From a virus (taxonomy: Duplodnaviria > Heunggongvirae > Uroviricota > Caudoviricetes), in the IMG/VR virus record IMGVR_UViG_2690316233_000001: 8,137 nucleotides of DNA. One strand, 5' to 3'. The position numbers were made by a program, and so were the translations under genes. The notes under the pieces were generated by a model. It saw only the letters and a program-made list of their open reading frames with translations. It searched no databases and had not been told where the DNA came from. Positions 1 to 8,137 of this stretch are shown in pieces (within the stretch, counting starts at the first letter, position 1; every line of letters starts with the position of its first letter).

Positions 1-912
<912 letters not shown>

Positions 913-916
<4 letters not shown>

Positions 917-1698
917 GCTGCCACCTTCTGCTCTGCGGCTTTCTGTTTCAGGAATCCAAGAGCTTTCACTGCTTCGGCCTGTGTCAGTTCTGACGATGCG
1001 CGAATGTCGCGGCGAAATATCTGGGAACAGAGCGGCAATAAGTCGTCATCCCATGTTTTATCCAGGGCGATCAGCAGAGTGTTAATCTCCTGCATGGTTT
1101 CATCGTTTACCGGAGTGATGTCGCGTTCCGGCTGGCGTTCTGCAGTGTATGCGGTATTTTCGACAATGCGCTCGGCTTCATCCTTGTCATAGATACCAGC
1201 AAATCCGAAGGCCAGGCGGGCACACTGAATCATGGCTTTATGCCGTAACATCCGTTTGGGATGCGACTGCCACGGCCCCGTGATTTCTCTGCCTTCGCGG
1301 GTTTTGAATGGTTCGCGGCGGCATTCATCCATCCATTCGGTAACGCAGATCGGATGATTACGGTCCTTGCGGTAAATACGGCATGTGCAGGATTCGTTGT
1401 CCTGTTCAAAGTCCATGCCATCAAACTGCTGGTTTTCATTGATGATGCGGGACCAGCCATCAACGCCCACTACCGGAACGATGCCATTCTGCTTATCAGG
1501 AAAGGCGTAAATTTCTTTCGTCCACGGATTAAGGCCGTACTGGTTGGCAACGATCAGTAATGCGATGAACTGCGCATCGCTGGCATCACCTTTAAATGCC
1601 GTCTGGCGAAGAGTGGTGATCAGTTCCTGTGGGTCGACAGAATCCATGCCGACACGTTCAGCCAGCTTCCCAGCCAGCGTTGCGAGTGCTGTACTCAT
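913..1698 (-). CDS. bet: Red beta single-strand annealing protein
   Basis: 261-aa ORF ([59 protein letters not shown]...) matches lambda Bet in sequence and length; position between gam and exo is conserved. Confidence 0.96.
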
Positions 1699-1703
1699 CC
1701 GTT

Positions 1704-2120
1704 TTATACCTCTGAATCAATATCAACCTGATGGTGAGCAATGGTTTCAACCATGTACCGGATGTGTTCTGCCATGCGCTCCTGAAACTCAACATCGTCA
1801 TCAAACGCACGGGTAATGGCTTTTTTGCTGGCCCCGTGGCGTTGCAAATGATCGATGCATAGCGATTCAAACAGGTGCTGGGGCAGGCCTTTTTCCATGT
1901 CGTCTGCCAGTTCTGCCTCTTTCTCTTCACGGGCGATCTGCTGGTAGTGACGCGCCCAGCTCTGAGCCTCAAGACGATCCTGAATGTAATAAGCGTTCAT
2001 GGCCGAACTCCTGAAATAGCTGTGAAAATATCGCCCGCGAAATGCCGGGCTGATTAGGAAAACAGGAAAGGGGGTTAGTGAATGCTTTTGCTTGATCTCA
2101 GTTTCAGTATTAATATCCAT
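1704..2120 (-). CDS. gam: Gam, RecBCD inhibitor (long 138-aa form; the internal Met at MNAYYIQ, nt 2000, would give the short form)
   Basis: 138-aa ORF ([55 protein letters not shown]...) matches lambda Gam; 5' end overlaps kil as in lambda. Confidence 0.94.
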
Positions 2121-2218
2121 TTTTTATAAGCGTCGACGGCCTCACGAAACATCTTTTCATCGCCAATAAAAGTGGCAATAGTGAATTTTGTCTGGATAGC
2201 CATAAGTTTTTTATCCAT
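2075..2218 (-). CDS. kil: Kil, host cell-division (FtsZ) inhibitor, 47 aa
   Basis: Internal Met of track ORF 2075..2344 gives [47 protein letters not shown], same length and position as lambda kil. The upstream part of the track ORF is cIII read out of frame, so the 47-aa form is the real gene. Confidence 0.8.
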
Positions 2219-2351
2219 TTTTGGGGACTCCTGGCTGATTAAGTATGTCGATAAGGCGTTTCCATCCGTCACGTAATTTACGGGTGATTCGTTCAAGTAA
2301 AGATTCGGAAGGGCAGCCAGCAACAGGCCACCCTGCAATGGCATATTGCAT
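2211..2351 (-). CDS. cIII: CIII, FtsH (HflB) protease inhibitor that stabilises CII; 46-aa variant
   Basis: Hand translation of the minus strand from the ATG at 2351 gives [46 protein letters not shown] then TAA. This matches lambda CIII through residue 46; lambda continues 8 more residues as I recall. Overlaps the kil start by 8 nt. Not in the ORF track, presumably because it is under the length cutoff. Confidence 0.8.
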   Translation of the reverse strand: MQYAIAGWPVAGCPSESLLERITRKLRDGWKRLIDILNQPGVPKNG

Positions 2352-2423
2352 GGTGTGCTCCTTATTTATACATAACGAAAAACGCCTCGAGTGAAGCGTA
2401 ATTGGTATGCGGTAACGCCGCGC

Positions 2424-2792
2424 TCAGGCGGCTTTGATAGTCATATCATCTGGATCAAATATTCCTGATGTATCGATATCGGTAATTCTTATTCCTTCGC
2501 TACCATCCATTGGAGGCCATCCTTCCTGACCATTTCCATCATTCCAGTCGAACTCACACACAACACCATATGCATTTAAGTCGCTTGAAATTGCTATAAG
2601 CAGAGCATGTTGCGCCAGCATGATTAATACAGCATTTAATACAGAGCCGTGTTTATTGAGTCGGTATTCAGAGTCTGACCAGAAATTATTAATCTGGTGA
2701 AGTTTTTCCTCTGTCATTACGTCATGGTCGATTTCAATTTCCATTGATGCTTTCCAGTCGCAATCAATGATGTATTTTTTGATGTTTGACAT
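2424..2792 (-). CDS. ea10: Ea10 (lambda early-left protein, putative ssDNA-binding protein)
   Basis: 122-aa ORF (MSNIKKYIIDCDWKASMEIEIDHDVMTEEKLHQINNFWSDSEYRLNKHGSV...) matches lambda Ea10 as I recall it, in the same position between cIII and ral. Confidence 0.85.
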   Translation of the reverse strand: MSNIKKYIIDCDWKASMEIEIDHDVMTEEKLHQINNFWSDSEYRLNKHGSVLNAVLIMLAQHALLIAISSDLNAYGVVCEFDWNDGNGQEGWPPMDGSEGIRITDIDTSGIFDPDDMTIKAA

Positions 2793-2801
2793 CTATTCAT
2801 A

Positions 2802-2828
2802 TCCTCATAGATAAAAAATCGCCCTCAC
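2802..2828 (-). terminator. Intrinsic-terminator-like hairpin (tL2-like) between ral and ea10
   Basis: Stem GCCCTC (2811-2816) / GAGGGC (2823-2828) with a 6-nt loop; on the minus strand the hairpin is followed by a U-run (plus-strand AAAAAA at 2803-2808). Confidence 0.5.
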
Positions 2829-2974
2829 ACTGGAGGGCAAAGAAGATTTCCAATAATCAGAACAAGTCGGCTCCTGTTTAGTTACGAGCGACATTGCTCC
2901 GTGTATTCACTCGTTGGAATGAATACACAGTGCAGTGTTTATTCTGTTATTTATGCCAAAAATAAAGGTCACTA

Positions 2975-3175
2975 TCAGGCAGCTTTGTTGTTCTGTTTAC
3001 CAAGTTCTCTGGCAATCATTGCCGTCGTTCGTATTGCCCATTTATCGACATATTTCCCATCTTCCATTACAGGAAACATTTCTTCAGGCTTAACCATGCA
3101 TTCCGATTGCAGCTTGCATCCATTGCATCGCTTGAATTGTCCACACCATTGATTTTTATCAATAGTCGTAGTCAT
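2975..3175 (-). CDS. ral: Ral, restriction-alleviation protein (modulates host EcoK type I R-M)
   Basis: 66-aa ORF MTTTIDKNQWCGQFKRCNGCKLQSECMVKPEEMFPVMEDGKYVDKWAIRTTAMIARELGKQNNKAA matches lambda Ral. Confidence 0.9.
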   Translation of the reverse strand: MTTTIDKNQWCGQFKRCNGCKLQSECMVKPEEMFPVMEDGKYVDKWAIRTTAMIARELGKQNNKAA

Positions 3176-3245
3176 ACGGATAGTCCTGGTATTGTTCCAT
3201 CACATCCTGAGGATGCTCTTCGAACTCTTCAAATTCTTCTTCCAT
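3159..3245 (-). CDS. orf28-like small ORF (28 aa, acidic) upstream of ral
   Basis: Hand translation from the ATG at 3245: MEEEFEEFEEHPQDVMEQYQDYPYDYDY then stop. Same position and length as lambda orf28; overlaps the ral start. Whether it is translated is unknown. Confidence 0.45.
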   Translation of the reverse strand: MEEEFEEFEEHPQDVMEQYQDYPYDYDY

Positions 3246-3445
3246 ATATCACCTCAAATAAGTTGTTTGCTGCGAAAGTAAATACGCTTAAGTTACCTGT
3301 TATTTATCCCACCAAGTTCCGTATCTATCTATCCAGTTACACCAATCATCGACACTCCATTTTGTTGTGTCGCATTTTTGCAACTGGCATGAATATCTAC
3401 CTTCTTTGTAAAGTCGGCGTTTGACTTTCTTGAGCATGGCTCACC

Positions 3446-3700
3446 TCAATCGTAATAAGCTGGAATTGATTTTCCGCGTTGCTTCTGGCAGCGAAGGCTT
3501 CCGAGTGATATTGCTTTTTCAGAAAGGCTTAAACGTTTTCTCGGGGCTTCCTGAACAGGTTCCTCACTGTCTGTGCCGAAGATCGAATCGATGATGTTGC
3601 ATATAGCATCACGCTCGATAGCCAGCTTTCTGCGCCGCTCATGACGGCGAGTTTTGGCATTTCCTGCAAATGTTGATTTCCCGTACACGATTACCGTCAT
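3446..3700 (-). CDS. N: N-family transcription antiterminator, P22 gene-24-type (arginine-rich motif at N-terminus)
   Basis: Track ORF 3446..3784; the internal Met at 3700 gives MTVIVYGKSTFAGNAKTRRHERRRKLAIERD..., which resembles the P22 gp24 N-terminus and arginine-rich motif as I recall it. A strong Shine-Dalgarno GAGGAA lies 6 nt upstream of this ATG. The C-terminus (...QKQRGKSIPAYYD) resembles the lambda N C-terminus (...GKSIPLI). The upstream 28 in-frame codons have no RBS and are probably not translated. Confidence 0.8.
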   Translation of the reverse strand: MTVIVYGKSTFAGNAKTRRHERRRKLAIERDAICNIIDSIFGTDSEEPVQEAPRKRLSLSEKAISLGSLRCQKQRGKSIPAYYD

Positions 3701-3819
3701 GATGTTTTCCTCATGTGAAATGGCTTTGGGGGTGATGTGCCAGATGCTGATCTTCTGGTTGCTGTCGTTGCAGCTGCAATTCACATCACCGCCAAATCCA
3801 TCTCGTTTGGTATCTGTTT

Positions 3820-3853
3820 GCGCTTTGTCAGCGCCCCATCGAAGTTAAAGAGC
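3820..3853 (-). promoter_or_regulatory. nutL site: boxA-like (3845-3853) and boxB hairpin (3820-3834), P22 type
   Basis: Minus strand reads GGCTCTTTAACTTCGATGGGGCGCTGACAAAGCGCAAAC. GCTCTTTAA fits the boxA consensus CGCTCTTTA with one mismatch; GCGCTGACAAAGCGC is a perfect 5-bp stem with a 5-nt loop and is the P22 nutL boxB sequence as I recall it. Lies between the presumed pL and the N start. Confidence 0.75.
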
Positions 3854-3859
3854 CTGCCA

Positions 3860-4010
3860 ATCTGTTCCGTTTGGCTGCCAGCATCCTGCTGACGGCGATA
3901 ATAATGAACTAATGGTTCGATATTATCAAGAACTGCAAGTACGAGATTTTGCAACTCTTTAATTTTATTAGATAAGTTTTTGATATGTAATGAAATTTAT
4001 TTTTGCAAAG
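3860..4010 (-). promoter_or_regulatory. pL promoter / OL operator region (exact -35/-10 not resolved)
   Basis: AT-rich region upstream of nutL and N. Contains TTGCAA hexamers (3948-3953 and about 4004-4009) and an ACTGCAAGTACGA motif (3932-3944) that also occurs in the cI-cro intergenic region. I could not find a -35/-10 pair with canonical spacing. Confidence 0.45.
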
Positions 4011-4120
4011 ATTGAAGATTGGTCTGTAGGGGAGAAAGGACTGTATTGCTGGCGTGTTAGTTCGTGGGTTAGCACATATGCGGATGTTAAATAGGGGAGG
4101 CGAACGTGAGGTAAAGAAAA

Positions 4121-4143
4121 CCCGGCGCAGAGGCCGGGTTTTT
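4121..4143. terminator. Bidirectional rho-independent terminator (tImm-like) between the repressor operon and pL
   Basis: Stem CCCGGC (4121-4126) / GCCGGG (4133-4138) with loop GCAGAG. Followed by TTTTT on the plus strand (4139-4143) and preceded by AAAA (4117-4120), which gives a U-tract on the minus strand, directly after the stop of the 258-aa gene at 4144. Confidence 0.7.
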
Positions 4144-4920
4144 CTAGGCTACCAGAGAGTCAATCCAAGAGTCTCTGGTATGGAATGGCAACACTCGTGC
4201 GGTATCATTAAATAGTAGTGATAGTTGCTGTAGCTCAGGTGTTAACCCATCGCTGTCAACTATTACAAATCTATTGTTTATGTCAGGAACGACCTGACTT
4301 AAGTCAACAATCTTCCCAACTGTTGAGTGGGCAGTATTCCATCCTTTACTGCTGGCAAGGCTTACCGTAAACCCGCGTTTTGGTGGTATTAGTCGAGACT
4401 CATTCCTTAGCGTTAACGGAACAGTAATGTTATGCCCACTAATACCTTTCACTTTTTCCTTTAAGGCTAGTCGCTTCCCAAGCCCTGCTGATTTTAAGTA
4501 ACTGATTACACATTTTTCGAACTTATCGTCTTTGACCTCAGCATACCAATCAGCAGTTTGGGCGGATGCAAGAATCCCACCACGAATAACATTTGCAGTT
4601 ACCTGTCCAACGGACGACTCATCTGCCCACGCAGATATCTCTCCAGAGTCATTTAATGAAATTCCTTGCGAAGCGAGTGATGACCTGATCAGATCAATTT
4701 TCTTTTTAGTCAGGTGGATGCCGCGTGATTCAATATTCATCAATGTATCGCAGTAGTCTGTAACCCTATACTGACCACTCATCTCTTGAACGAATACGCT
4801 TATCTGCTCACAATCATCGTAGTATGTGAAGGGACTAATAACGCGCAGCAACGTGTCGCTCATTGGGTGGCATTCAAACCCGAGCTTAGATATGACTGTT
4901 GAACACGTTACATTTCCCAT
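4144..4920 (-). CDS. Hypothetical protein, 258 aa; distal gene of a two-gene module downstream of cI; candidate exclusion/defence protein
   Basis: Long uninterrupted ORF (MGNVTCSTVISKLGFECHPMSDTLLRV...RDSWIDSLVA). Its start overlaps the 3' end of the upstream 180-aa ORF by 13 nt, suggesting translational coupling. No long hydrophobic segments, so probably soluble. I recognise no family. The start codon is uncertain: weak RBS, and Met20 at 4863 is an alternative. Confidence 0.65.
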   Translation of the reverse strand: MGNVTCSTVISKLGFECHPMSDTLLRVISPFTYYDDCEQISVFVQEMSGQYRVTDYCDTLMNIESRGIHLTKKKIDLIRSSLASQGISLNDSGEISAWADESSVGQVTANVIRGGILASAQTADWYAEVKDDKFEKCVISYLKSAGLGKRLALKEKVKGISGHNITVPLTLRNESRLIPPKRGFTVSLASSKGWNTAHSTVGKIVDLSQVVPDINNRFVIVDSDGLTPELQQLSLLFNDTARVLPFHTRDSWIDSLVA

Positions 4921-5450
4921 GATAGCTGACCTGATTTATCTTGATTCGGTAAAGGTGGGCTGCCTTCATATATGATATTAAGCGCCTCGCAAAAATAATT
5001 CCAGTAGCCAAAAAAATCATCTGGCTTGATGTTCGTTTCAAGCTTGAGTGCAATTTCTTCCCCAGCTGATTCGAAGTACATGTGATAGTGAGGACCTCGA
5101 GCCACCTCAACAAAATCTGGATGGTGCACTATAGATTTATTACGGTGTGACTTGTTATGCGCAGGGTACGGGTCAAGCGCGTAAATGCGCCTGTCATGAA
5201 GAAACATCACAAATGAAAGCTTCACTATATCCACCCCTTCAACGATAGGAGAACGCCAGTGAAGCATAAATCTTATGCCTGTGATTGGGTTGCCAATTTC
5301 ATCAAAAGCTTTGAGATCCAATTTAAACCAGATTGGGGTTCGTCCCTCACTTCCGGTCCACGAAACTCCGCTAAAAGTTACTTTTTTCAAGCGAGTAATA
5401 GCTTGGTCAACCTCTTTCTGGGTAGGCTTAAAGTCGCCTTTTTTAGCCAC
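4908..5450 (-). CDS. Hypothetical protein, 180 aa; proximal gene of the two-gene module downstream of cI; candidate exclusion/defence protein
   Basis: ORF (MAKKGDFKPTQKEVDQAITRLKK...IVHHPDFVEVARGPHYHMYFES...SGQLSWEM). The start codon at 5450 is GTG, with a GGTGA Shine-Dalgarno-like sequence about 9 nt upstream and an in-frame stop at 5460-5462 that bounds the N-terminus. Contains a histidine-rich stretch (HHPDF...HYHMYF). No long hydrophobic segments. I recognise no family. Confidence 0.6.
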   Translation of the reverse strand: MAKKGDFKPTQKEVDQAITRLKKVTFSGVSWTGSEGRTPIWFKLDLKAFDEIGNPITGIRFMLHWRSPIVEGVDIVKLSFVMFLHDRRIYALDPYPAHNKSHRNKSIVHHPDFVEVARGPHYHMYFESAGEEIALKLETNIKPDDFFGYWNYFCEALNIIYEGSPPLPNQDKSGQLSWEM

Positions 5451-5547
5451 TGATTCGTATCACCATGAAAGTTATTGTTAATACCTATGCTTCTTGTCAC
5501 CCAAACGTCTCTTCAGGCCATTGGTTACCAGCTATGTGACGATGAAG

Positions 5548-6255
5548 TCACGAACTTTTAATCCATTCCCTTGCCTCGATGTCATCTAGGTGGCGAGATT
5601 GCTTCAAAATACCAGCCACATACTCCACCTTTGCTACTTGATGATAAGGCAACGTTATTGGCCTGTGGTCTTGATTGATGCTTGTAAATTGGTATTCTCC
5701 GTCTCTGTCATAGCCAAGAACCTTGATCATGTTGTGCCCTTCAATGGTTCTGACAAACACTTCATCACCTGGGAATACTTTGGTGTTAGGCTCAATGAGT
5801 ACATATTCTCCTGATTTAATTCTGGGCCACATGCTGTCTCCTTTTACACGAAGACCAAAGGCATCTGGATCATCGCTATAAATCTTGAGCCACCCATCGC
5901 GCTCTTCGGTCATCTCGATGGCACCATCAACACCAAGAATTGCCTCACCAACCACGCGCACTAACCCTTTTTTTAATTTGCCAACAATTGAAAAAGTATC
6001 TTCATCATTCGCTCCATTTAACGAAGTGCCGTGCTGAAGCCAAACAACATCAACGTTTAGAAATTTCGCAAGCGCATTCATTTTTTCCTGGCGTGGTAAA
6101 GACTCAGCATTAAACCATTTGCTAACGCCTTTGGACGAAAGAGAAAGGGCACGGGCTATGGCCATTCCCCTACCATGTTCATCAAGACCAGCTTCTTTAC
6201 AGGCTTGCGCTAGCCGCTGGGCGAATTCTTTGCGCACTTTTTCATTCTGAACCAT
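5548..6255 (-). CDS. cI: CI-type prophage repressor (N-terminal HTH, C-terminal S24/LexA-like autopeptidase domain)
   Basis: 235-aa ORF with a helix-turn-helix region (RLAQACKEAGLDEHGRGMAIARALSLSSKGVSKWFNAE) and a C-terminal VKGDSMWP...IKVLG region typical of LexA/CI self-cleaving repressors (Ser in GDSM, Lys downstream). Divergently oriented to cro. Not the lambda, 434 or P22 c2 sequence. Confidence 0.9.
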   Translation of the reverse strand: MVQNEKVRKEFAQRLAQACKEAGLDEHGRGMAIARALSLSSKGVSKWFNAESLPRQEKMNALAKFLNVDVVWLQHGTSLNGANDEDTFSIVGKLKKGLVRVVGEAILGVDGAIEMTEERDGWLKIYSDDPDAFGLRVKGDSMWPRIKSGEYVLIEPNTKVFPGDEVFVRTIEGHNMIKVLGYDRDGEYQFTSINQDHRPITLPYHQVAKVEYVAGILKQSRHLDDIEAREWIKSS

Positions 6256-6333
6256 GAGTACGATACTAAAGCACTTGCAAAAACTTTCAGTTCAATCATA
6301 ATGCGTACTGAAAGTACGAAAAAGGGTATTCCT
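6256..6333. promoter_or_regulatory. OR region: pR promoter (-35 TTGCAA 6274-6279, -10 CATAAT 6297-6302, 17-bp spacer), pRM, and operator repeats
   Basis: The pR hexamers are near consensus with a 17-bp spacer and point into cro. A 15-bp imperfect palindrome CGTACTGAAAGTACG (6304-6318) lies just downstream of the pR -10. The heptamer AGTACGA recurs at 6257-6263, 6313-6319 and in OL at 3938-3944. On the minus strand a -10-like TAGTAT (6263-6268) ends 7 nt before the cI ATG with no SD, suggesting a leaderless cI mRNA as for lambda pRM. Confidence 0.6.
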
Positions 6334-6561
6334 ATGCAAAATCTTGATGAGCCGATTAAAGGTGTCGGCATCCCTGAAGTTGCGAAGGCTTGTGGAGTTA
6401 GCGAAAGGGCTGTCTATAAGTGGCTCAAAAACGGCTTCCTCCCTAAGACTGAGTTTTTTGGGAAAACTAAATACGCATCAAAAATCGAAGAGATTTCTGG
6501 TGGCAAATATCAAGCAAGCGAAATGCTTGAAATAAGCAAAAAGAACCTTCTGGCTGCATAA
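6334..6561 (+). CDS. cro: Cro-like repressor (HTH), 75 aa
   Basis: Track ORF 6301..6561; the ATG at 6301 lies inside the pR -10, so the likely start is the ATG at 6334, preceded by AAAAAGGG. Product MQNLDEPIKGVGIPEVAKACGVSERAVYKWLKNGFLPK... has a clear HTH; it is the first gene rightward of the repressor gene. Confidence 0.8.
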   Translation: MQNLDEPIKGVGIPEVAKACGVSERAVYKWLKNGFLPKTEFFGKTKYASKIEEISGGKYQASEMLEISKKNLLAA

Positions 6562-6568
6562 GTAACAC

Positions 6569-6603
6569 CGCTCTTTATCAATCTGCACCGCCGACAACGC
6601 GGT
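6569..6603 (+). promoter_or_regulatory. nutR site: boxA CGCTCTTTA (6569-6577) and boxB ACCGCCGACAACGCGGT (6587-6603), P22 type
   Basis: Perfect boxA consensus followed at lambdoid spacing by a hairpin (stem CCGCC/GCGG-like, loop GACAA) that matches the P22 nutR boxB as I recall it. Lies immediately after the cro stop. Same specificity class as nutL and the N protein in this window. Confidence 0.75.
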
Positions 6604-6614
6604 AACTAATTAAG

Positions 6615-6648
6615 CACTCATCGAAAGATGAGTGTTAGTGATTATTTA
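6615..6648 (+). terminator. tR1-like intrinsic terminator between nutR and cII
   Basis: Perfect 8-bp stem CACTCATC (6615-6622) / GATGAGTG (6627-6634) with GAAA tetraloop, followed by the T-rich tract TTAGTGATTATTT. Confidence 0.6.
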
Positions 6649-6667
6649 CCTATGGGAATAGTAAGAA

Positions 6668-6964
6668 ATGACACAAACAAGTTACAGCAAACTATCACAG
6701 CGCGACGTTGATCGCGCAGAAACAGATTTACTCATCAACCTGTCAACGCTTACCCAGCGCGGTCTGGCAAAGATGATTGGCTGTCATGAATCGAAGATAA
6801 GCAGAACAGACTGGAGGTTTATTGCTTCGGTCTTGTGTGCTTTCGGAATGGCATCAGACATCAGTCCGATTAGTAGGGCTTTTAAGTATGCGCTTGATGA
6901 AATCACAAAGAAAAAACGCCCGGCGGCAACCGAGCGTTCTGAACAAATCCAGATGGAATTCTGA
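6668..6964 (+). CDS. cII: CII-type lysogeny establishment activator (chimeric: divergent N-terminal/HTH part, lambda-identical C-terminus)
   Basis: 98-aa ORF MTQTSYSKLSQRDVDRAETDLLINLSTLTQRGLAKMIGCHESKISR... ending ...KKRPAATERSEQIQMEF, which is the lambda CII C-terminus as I recall it. HTH in the middle; located between cro/tR1 and O. Confidence 0.85.
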   Translation: MTQTSYSKLSQRDVDRAETDLLINLSTLTQRGLAKMIGCHESKISRTDWRFIASVLCAFGMASDISPISRAFKYALDEITKKKRPAATERSEQIQMEF

Positions 6965-6984
6965 GGTCATTACTGGATCAATCC
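6908..6984 (-). ncRNA. oop: oop antisense RNA (overlaps the cII 3' end) with its terminator
   Basis: Minus strand reads ...GATTGATCCAGTAATGACCTCAGAATTCCATCTGGATTTGTTCAGAACGCTCGGTTGCCGCCGGGCGTTTTTT, nearly identical to lambda oop RNA as I recall it, including the GC-rich 3' hairpin and U-run. End coordinates are approximate (about +/-5 nt). Confidence 0.6.
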
Positions 6985-6996
6985 ACAGGAGTCATT

Positions 6997-7896
6997 ATGA
7001 CAAATACAGCAAAAATACTCAACTTCGGCAGAGGTAACTTTGCCGGACAGGAGCGTAATGTGGCAGATCTCGATGATGGTTACGCCAGACTATCAAATAT
7101 GCTGCTTGAGGCTTATTCGGGCGCAGATCTGACCAAGCGACAGTTTAAAGTGCTGCTTGCCATTCTGCGTAAAACCTATGGGTGGAATAAACCAATGGAC
7201 AGAATCACCGATTCTCAACTTAGCGAGATTACAAAGTTACCTGTCAAACGGTGCAATGAAGCCAAGTTAGAACTCGTCAGAATGAATATTATCAAGCAGC
7301 AAGGCGGCATGTTTGGACCAAACAAAAACATCTCAGAATGGTGTATCCCTCAAAACGAGGGAAAATCCCCTAAAACGAGGGATAAAACATCCCTCAAATT
7401 GGGGGATTGCTATCCCTCAAAACAGGGGAACACAAAAGACACTATTACAAAAGAAAAAAGAAAAGATTATTCGTCAGAGAATTCTGGCGAATCCTCTAAC
7501 CAACCAGAAAACGATCTTCCTGTGGAGAAACCAGATGCTGCAATTCAGCGCGGCAGCAAGTGGGGGACAGCAGAAGACCTGACCGCCGCAGAGTGGATGT
7601 TTGACATGGTGAAGACTATCGCACCATCAGCCAGAAAACCGAATTTTGCTGGGTGGGCTAACGATATCCGCCTGATGCGTGAACGTGACGGACGCAACCA
7701 TCGCGACATGTGTGTACTGTTCCGCTGGGCATGCCAGGACAACTTCTGGTCCGGTAACGTGCTTAGCCCGGCCAAACTCCGCGACAAGTGGACCCAGCTC
7801 GAAATCAACCGTAACAAGCAACAGGCAGTCGTGACAGCCAGCAAACCAAAACTGGACCTGACAAACACAGACTGGATTTACGGGGTGGATCTATGA
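6997..7896 (+). CDS. O: Replication initiator O (binds ori iterons)
   Basis: 299-aa ORF (MTNTAKILNFGRGNFAGQERNVADLDDGYARLSNMLLEAYSG...TDWIYGVDL) matches lambda O with a few substitutions; contains ori internally; stop overlaps the P start. Confidence 0.96.
   Translation: MTNTAKILNFGRGNFAGQERNVADLDDGYARLSNMLLEAYSGADLTKRQFKVLLAILRKTYGWNKPMDRITDSQLSEITKLPVKRCNEAKLELVRMNIIKQQGGMFGPNKNISEWCIPQNEGKSPKTRDKTSLKLGDCYPSKQGNTKDTITKEKRKDYSSENSGESSNQPENDLPVEKPDAAIQRGSKWGTAEDLTAAEWMFDMVKTIAPSARKPNFAGWANDIRLMRERDGRNHRDMCVLFRWACQDNFWSGNVLSPAKLRDKWTQLEINRNKQQAVVTASKPKLDLTNTDWIYGVDL
7344..7475. repeat. ori-lambda-type origin: four direct iterons (about 18-19 bp each, ATCCCTCAAAACGAGGGA-like) followed by an AT-rich region
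   Basis: Seen directly: TATCCCTCAAAACGAGGGAAA / AATCCCCTAAAACGAGGGATA / CATCCCTCAAATTGGGGGATT / TATCCCTCAAAACAGGGGAAC, then ACAAAAGACACTATTACAAAAGAAAAAAGAAAAGATTAT. Located in the middle of the O gene, as in lambda. Confidence 0.88.
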
Positions 7897-8137
7897 AAAA
7901 CATCGCCGCACAGATGGTTAACTTTGACCGTGAGCAGATGCGTCGGATCGCCAACAACATGCCGGAACAGTACGACGAAAAGCCGCAGGTACAGCAGGTT
8001 GCGCAGATCATCAACGGTGTGTTCAGCCAGTTACTGGCAACTTTCCCGGCGAGTCTGGCTAACCGTGACCAGAACGAACTGAACGAAATCCGCCGCCAGT
8101 GGGTTCTGGCTTTCCGGGAAAACGGGATCACCACAAT
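7893..8137 (+). CDS. P: Replication protein P (DnaB helicase loader), 5' part only; runs off the window
   Basis: ATG at 7893 overlaps the O stop. Translation MKNIAAQMVNFDREQMRRIANNMPEQYDEKPQVQQVAQIINGVFSQLLATFPASLANRDQNELNEIRRQWVLAFRENGITT matches the lambda P N-terminus. No stop in the window, so the feature is partial. Confidence 0.93.
   Translation, partial: MKNIAAQMVNFDREQMRRIANNMPEQYDEKPQVQQVAQIINGVFSQLLATFPASLANRDQNELNEIRRQWVLAFRENGITT

Follow-up and report, generated by a model that had tools for sequence, protein, structure and literature searches.

Does the boundary between a foreign immunity region and lambda-type replication genes fall inside cII in this prophage, and has the exchange changed what the CII activator recognizes? 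The window, by which we mean the whole 8,137-nt stretch of DNA analysed, corresponds to the early region of an E. coli prophage that resembles lambda, with genes in the order exo, bet, gam, kil, cIII, an N homologue, a two-gene cassette, cI, cro, cII, O and the start of P. Within it, cII (6668–6964, plus strand) is an intact open reading frame of 98 codons and a stop, located between cro (with nutR/tR1) and O, all on the plus strand of the rightward early operon. It encodes a full-length CII-family transcriptional activator. Residues 1–92 align with positions 1–91 of the 91-position Pfam profile Phage_CII (PF05269, E = 8e-34), and further matches are to PHROG 191 (E = 7e-38) and to the lambda CII structures 1XWR, 1ZPQ and 8IGR (E = 6e-9). 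The initial annotation, made from the sequence alone, had described the N-terminal two-thirds of the protein as unlike lambda. The divergence is real and extends further than proposed, over about four fifths of the protein (80 of 98 residues), and the Pfam match identifies this part as a divergent homologue of lambda CII rather than an unrelated sequence.

The gene divides into two parts of different ancestry. Codons 1–81 (6668–6910, plus strand), which contain the helix-turn-helix (HTH) and the last predicted helix, form a body of the 21/HK022/933W type, with the 933W allele as its nearest relative: 231 of 243 nt (95%) are identical to 933W, compared with 105 of 243 (43%) to lambda, a background-level similarity given by a gapped global alignment. 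At the protein level, 77 of residues 1–80 match 933W, and lambda agrees at 21 of 85 aligned positions (~25%). The next six nucleotides, AAAAAA (6911–6916, codons K82–K83), are common to all alleles and correspond on the other strand to the U-tract of the oop terminator. Beyond them, comparison with lambda and 933W at the nucleotide level shows codons 84–98 (RPAATERSEQIQMEF) and the stop (6917–6964, plus strand) to be a lambda-type tail, with 49 of the 50 nt at 6917–6966 (98%) identical to lambda and 35 (70%) to 933W. The last 18 residues of CII, KKKRPAATERSEQIQMEF, match lambda at 17 positions and 933W at 10, in keeping with the original description of this end as lambda-type.

A three-way comparison of the window, lambda and 933W places the exchange narrowly. 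The last 933W-type informative site is at 6910 and the first lambda-type site is at 6917, so the exchange lies within the six A's at 6911–6916; around this joint, an uninterrupted run of 8 sites of the 933W type gives way to one of 15 sites of the lambda type. In a global alignment of 6562–8137 with lambda, near-identity starts at AAAAAACGCCCGG, with no real similarity before ~6910. The breakpoint is therefore sharp, without the uniform divergence across cII that would have argued against a chimeric gene, and the proposal that the boundary of the immunity exchange falls inside cII is borne out. Similarity to lambda begins, give or take a few bases, at the 3′ end of oop, where the overlap of oop with cII also starts.

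To the right of the joint, the sequence continues as lambda type. Identity to lambda is 346 of 347 nt (99.7%) at 6997–7343 and 97.7% over 6903–8137 by BLAST, confirming that the lambda O/P replication module was kept. O (6997–7896, plus strand; ORF list and Pfam Phage_rep_O) is a lambda-type replication initiator with four iterons, 97.7% identical to that of lambda, and is followed by a lambda-type P that starts at 7893. Among the informative sites between the joint and 8137, 25 are lambda-type and 9 are 933W-type. A short-patch conversion of 6917–6966 alone in an otherwise 933W-like phage was considered and rejected, as lambda-type sites continue in this way through O and P. Three single-nucleotide differences in the 5′ half of oop (6958, 6980 and 6984) agree with 933W, HK629 and HK633 and not with lambda, which points to a lambda-like relative, not lambda itself, as the donor.

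The joint in cII is one edge of a larger substitution. A BLAST comparison of the window with lambda 30000–41000 gave a left flank (82–3270) that is 98% identical to lambda and then, at 3271–6902, no match to lambda except for one 50-nt stretch (4096–4145); identity to lambda is thus lost abruptly at both ends of the cI–cro region. The non-lambda segment, at ~3271–6910, comprises N, the two-gene cassette, cI, cro, nutR/tR1 and the cII body. Because lambda-like DNA is also present to its left, the joint in cII marks where an immunity substitution of 3.6 kb ends on the right. Of its genes, cI (5548–6255, minus strand) is of the 933W type, cro lies at 6334–6561 on the plus strand (ORF list and Pfam search), and N (3483–4139) is 1H12-like at 92% rather than 933W-like.

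Two features inside the substituted region deserve separate mention. The cro–cII spacer (6575–6660, nutR/tR1) is unlike that of 933W, although the flanking cro and cII body are of the 933W type; it contains a terminator-like hairpin at 6613–6636 and matches phage 1H12 and, in part, HK022 and PDP110P2. This spacer is a second small mosaic joint within the immunity region. Directly downstream of cI, at the position of lambda rexA/rexB, two overlapping minus-strand open reading frames (4144–5450) encode proteins of 180 aa, with a weak match to DUF6978, and 258 aa, carrying DUF1828. Both show weak similarity to the two components of PDC-M24, a candidate defence system in PADLOC (A, E = 1.5e-3; B, E = 6e-7), and they also match PHROGs 2017 and 1960, to neither of which a function is assigned. 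The two genes may act together in exclusion or defence, expressed from the prophage.

A junction of this kind could also be produced by assembly, as a chimera between two prophages of one genome. E. coli genomes often have several lambdoid prophages that contain the junction block, which occurs at a median of 1 and a maximum of 6 places per genome; the block is present in roughly 1,770 E. coli genomes and roughly 300 phages. The same 106-nt junction, however, is found without change in 12 complete E. coli genomes, assembled independently and from different hosts and countries, with 721 further records at 95–99% identity, and sequenced phages have the same arrangement. Almost the whole window is likewise 99.7% identical to prophages in multiple complete E. 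coli genomes from various hosts and countries. The exact recurrence of the junction in complete genomes excludes an assembly artefact for practical purposes, and we give this explanation next to no credence.

The lambda-type segment begins with the antisense RNA gene oop. Searching Rfam at its gathering thresholds returned nothing for oop, the sole match in the window being the lambda cIII thermoregulator element RF01804 (full-length at 2306–2364, minus strand, 88.5 bits); oop was therefore judged by comparison with lambda and by folding. With its extent taken from lambda coordinates mapped onto the window, oop is ~77 nt long (~6910–6986, minus strand), lambda type and of the HK629/HK633/2G7b subtype: it is identical to lambda oop at 73 of 77 positions, differing at 6910, 6958, 6980 and 6984, and in the alignment it is identical to the oop of 2G7b and HK633 and one base from that of HK629. 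It overlaps the last 52–55 nt of cII; the overlap in lambda is 52 nt (PMC5869508). The RNA folds into two hairpins, as lambda oop does (−28.4 kcal/mol, z = −3.4).

The 3′ hairpin is the oop terminator, tO, identified by a terminator scan at 6913–6940 on the minus strand with 12 pairs, 6 of them GC, followed by a U-run at 6907–6912. Together with the identity to lambda oop, it upholds the earlier assignment of the downstream RNA and its terminator as lambda-type. Across 13 distinct lambdoid sequences, 98.6% of the cells of the terminator stem in the alignment are paired, and two pairs have changed in a compensatory manner, C–G to U–A and G–C to C–G. The 5′ hairpin is not conserved as pairing, with 80% of cells paired and the 933W and HK022 types folding differently; we therefore claim the terminator alone as a conserved structure. 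The sigma-70 promoter of oop, pO, was located by a promoter scan at 6994–7022 on the minus strand, in the 5′ end of O, with a TTGAGT hexamer, a 17-nt spacer and an extended −10 element, TG-CATAAT. The surrounding 44 nt (6987–7030) are identical to lambda at every position.

Retention of the oop/cII pairing, which the initial annotation had presented as a consequence of where the boundary falls, is correct and trivial: oop is encoded in cis and is complementary to whichever cII allele it overlaps, so the pairing is perfect by construction. By analogy with lambda, oop would be transcribed leftward from pO, end within cII and pair with the 3′ end of the cII mRNA, lowering CII synthesis in an RNase III-dependent way.

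The double use of this segment raises an alternative that requires no recombination at all: cII might have diverged uniformly from lambda, its 3′ end being held lambda-like by the dual constraint of protein tail and oop. The region is indeed dual-coding, the terminator stem has been kept by compensatory change, and every type shares a few conserved tail positions. Three observations are difficult to accommodate in this way. First, the identity of 49 of 50 nt to lambda includes synonymous positions. Second, identity to lambda of 97–100% extends 1.2 kb farther, into O and P. Third, bodies 94–96% identical to that of the window occur with tails in which 8 of 18 residues and 15 of 50 nt are different, which shows that the lambda sequence of this segment is not dictated by constraint. 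An origin by constraint is accordingly most improbable; the joint is a true recombination joint, not a constrained island, and we infer that homologous recombination produced it.

Our preferred reading, which we hold with high confidence, is that this is a natural lambdoid mosaic joint, with a hybrid CII that should work like any CII and an oop RNA that would lower its synthesis. In this reading the immunity region at ~3271–6910 has been replaced by a heterologous one with 933W-type cI, cro and cII body, and the right crossover fell at the A6/U6 run. This run forms the left margin of a short, conserved linker between the immunity and replication modules. The linker consists of four overlapping elements: the last 15–17 codons of cII, which would serve as a protein degradation tag; oop with its terminator, an antisense RNA; pO, the promoter of that RNA; and the beginning of O with its ribosome site, where the replication genes begin.

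The position of the crossover in the protein fits such a hybrid. CII proteins of the lambda family are characterized by a four-helix HTH fold, which forms a tetramer, and by a flexible C-terminal tail, a layout known from crystal structures of lambda CII. For the CII of the window, an AlphaFold model of low confidence (mean pLDDT 54.6, pTM 0.26) has helices at residues 11–27, 32–37, 49–61 and 67–82 and leaves residues 83–98 unstructured, with pLDDT < 50. The joint most likely sits where folded CII ends and the flexible tail starts, a placement that draws mainly on what is known of lambda CII because the model is poor. With the crossover at the end of the folded part, the hybrid CII should remain functional. 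The C-terminal 16 residues of lambda CII are described as a separable degradation tag, both necessary and sufficient (Kobiler 2002, as cited in PMC5869508). The tail in the window, identical to that of lambda at 17 of 18 residues, would on this similarity be the FtsH (HflB) degradation signal of the hybrid protein.

The remaining question is what the 933W-type body binds. The initial annotation had presumed that the exchange changed the DNA-binding specificity of CII to match pRE and pI as they occur in the donor of the immunity region, with lambda oop and the replication module retained. This idea has some grounds, since the HTH-bearing body has only ~25% identity to lambda CII, and the exchanged segment includes pRE, which travels with the body. 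Several lines of evidence nonetheless speak for an unchanged target.

First, the window retains a lambda-type site at pRE, one of three leftward promoters (the others being pI at xis and paQ in Q) at which the −35 of lambda-family phages is flanked by a TTGC-N6-TTGC direct repeat. A pattern search found a predicted CII-binding direct repeat of the pRE type, TTGC-TGTAAC-TTGT, at 6677–6690 on the minus strand, within cII codons 4–8. It occupies the position of the lambda pRE site, and the records of HK629, mEpX1 and epsilon34 mark a CII site there as well. Its TTGC and TTG elements do not vary among 17 phages that span three types of cII body, while adjacent bases do. A −10-like hexamer of a pRE-type promoter, TACTAT (6658–6663, minus strand), follows 13 nt past the repeat and aligns with AAGTAT of lambda; its spacing to the repeat is that of lambda, and the spacing is constant in all three body types. 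The protein side agrees: when aligned with lambda CII, the protein retains the core of the recognition helix, S-x-I-S-R, and the D-W after it.

Second, a CII identical to that of the window coexists with lambda-type targets that were not part of the exchange. We examined a complete sister prophage in E. coli AMSHJX01 (locus L019), in which cII is identical to that of the window. Its pI-type site, TTGCGAGTAATTGC, is located 13 nt upstream from a lambda-like xis; the corresponding sequence in lambda pI is TTGCGTGTAATTGC. Its paQ site, TTGCGAGCACTTGC, is exactly that of lambda and lies at nt 288–301 of Q, a gene with 97% identity to its lambda counterpart. Both sites lie outside the immunity region, and their coexistence with this CII speaks against a change of specificity. 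The search for CII sites upstream of cI and int that had been suggested as a check thus returned a lambda-type repeat at pRE in the window and a near-lambda pI site in the sister prophage. Totals of TTGC-N6-TTGY are not above chance, at 2 against 1.2 expected in the window and 9 against 6.6 expected in the 48-kb locus, so the weight rests on the position and orientation of the sites at pRE, pI and paQ. As a separate observation on the sister prophage, made at 15829–17124 of the locus, its int lies at 15829–16902, and the prophage is integrated in the chromosome beside mdtA and not at the lambda attB, yet has a lambda-like xis and pI region.

Third, comparable hybrids behave as expected of an unchanged target. 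Lambda imm21 hybrids, which combine this type of cII with the int and Q of lambda, still lysogenise. In the case of epsilon34, the N-terminal part of gp48 is weakly CII-like and its C-terminal end matches lambda CII at 16 of 18 residues (Villafane et al. 2008, PMC2629481). Like the window, epsilon34 has kept TTGCN6TTGC/T sites, and the target of its CII, a protein still more divergent than the one studied here, was judged to be the same as that of lambda or very similar (PMC2629481). Epsilon34 differs from the window in having a third body type, an ES18-like replication module and a lambda-like block that ends soon after the cII stop.

Taken with the pRE, pI and paQ sites, these cases make an altered CII specificity improbable, and the assumption of the initial annotation on this point is not sustained. 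The folded, 933W-type part of the protein (residues 1 to ~82) would bind TTGC-N6-TTGC repeats at pRE, pI and paQ and activate transcription from them. Judged from sequence, the specificity of the CII in the window is likely the same as that of lambda CII; it is likely rather than proven because the CII orthologues of phages L and P22 (phage L CI versus P22 C1) are said to differ in specificity (PMC8022706).

How does this joint compare with known systems? Lambda itself (NC_001416, 38360–38720) has a cII/oop/pO layout identical to that of the window, with the pRE repeat at the same codons. The difference lies in the first 80 residues of CII and in the loss of all DNA similarity to the left of 6911, as a result of which the region of the lambda ‘ice’ site is not conserved in the window. 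Joints of this type are already known, from the phage 21 record and from the papers on lambda imm21 and epsilon34. Phage 21 has a CII of the same body family (89% protein identity) and, as in the window, a border between non-lambda and lambda sequence that falls inside cII in the oop overlap and beyond which oop, pO, O and P are of the lambda type; its record (AJ237660) places the ‘border lambda immunity’ at 665/666, cII at 402–701 and ‘oopRNA’ at 644–724. Unlike in the window, the last non-lambda bases of phage 21 lie in the loop of the oop terminator, 36 nt before the end of cII, and its tail has an extra codon (RPVCKTERSEQIQMEF). The switch in the window occurs ~17–20 nt to the left of that in phage 21, in the A6 run, so that the whole terminator and the tail are lambda-type.

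For lambda imm21, Hayes et al. 2012 (PMC3349717) describe the same location of the border, within cII and beneath oop, and lambda OOP still silences imm21 cII despite five mismatches (PMC3349717). The same work describes a lambda/P22 hybrid in which the joint falls within pO, and also a block, conserved among 23 lambdoid phages, which it traces to the boundary sequence of Clark et al. 2001 (PMC3349717).

In the Shiga-toxin phage 933W (and H-19B), cI, cro and the cII body are 95–100% identical to those of the window, and O is lambda-like in both. They differ in that the tail and oop of 933W are an allele of their own (KKKSPVAAGDSKQIDMQF), with a terminator of the form UCCCCGG...CCGGGGA, and that 933W has a different nutR/tR1 spacer, six iterons compared with four in the window, and other genes downstream of cI. 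The difference in iteron number maps to 7343–7344, where the window has the four ori iterons of lambda and 933W has a 39-bp insertion. Stx phage P27 and PDP110P2 resemble the window in combining a 933W/21-type body with a lambda-type tail and oop, and their CII proteins are 97–98% identical to it. In P27, the lambda-type sequence starts ~10 nt further left, with CACCAAT before the A6 run compared with CACAAAG in the window, and in 2G7b, HK629 and Kapi1 it also starts ~10 nt to the left. PDP110P2 has the same joint as the window and differs by an HK022-type replication module downstream.

These comparisons extend to a general pattern in which the cII body, the tail with oop, and the replication module assort independently. 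In an alignment of 18 phages used for typing, we distinguished three types of cII body (lambda; 21/HK022/933W; epsilon34/P22-like), four types of tail and oop (lambda, 21, 933W and HK022) and at least four downstream replication modules, which occur in many combinations, with joints at at least three positions within ~20 nt. A survey of 5.8 billion proteins, with tails typed in 102 CII homologues, agrees with this picture: bodies at least 90% identical to that of the window carry all four tail types, and body identity and tail identity are weakly correlated (r = 0.32).

Such assortment invites a further proposal, that the cII-tail/oop block is itself an independently assorting module with functionally distinct alleles, rather than a passive stretch of shared sequence, and that the A6/U6 tract at its left end is a preferred site of crossover. 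We regard this as a tentative idea that is probably not correct. Were it true, the lambda, 21, 933W and HK022 alleles would set the half-life of CII and the strength of antisense and terminator, and the frequency of lysogeny would be set independently of immunity specificity.

The joint brings no new mechanism and opens no long-standing question. It is nevertheless a natural case of textbook quality for the swapping of immunity regions in lambdoid phages, and it carries a practical consequence for annotation, as the allele type of CII cannot be called from one end of the gene.

Outside the phages typed above, genomes of Enterobacter, Cronobacter and related genera encode CII proteins with bodies 74–86% identical to that of the window and a shorter, quite different tail (for example, LEGLTKEKAPMSGNSFEA) in which the Q-I-x-M-x-F ending is missing. 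This sequence difference suggests that the arrangement of oop and degron in these genera is a different one, or is absent.
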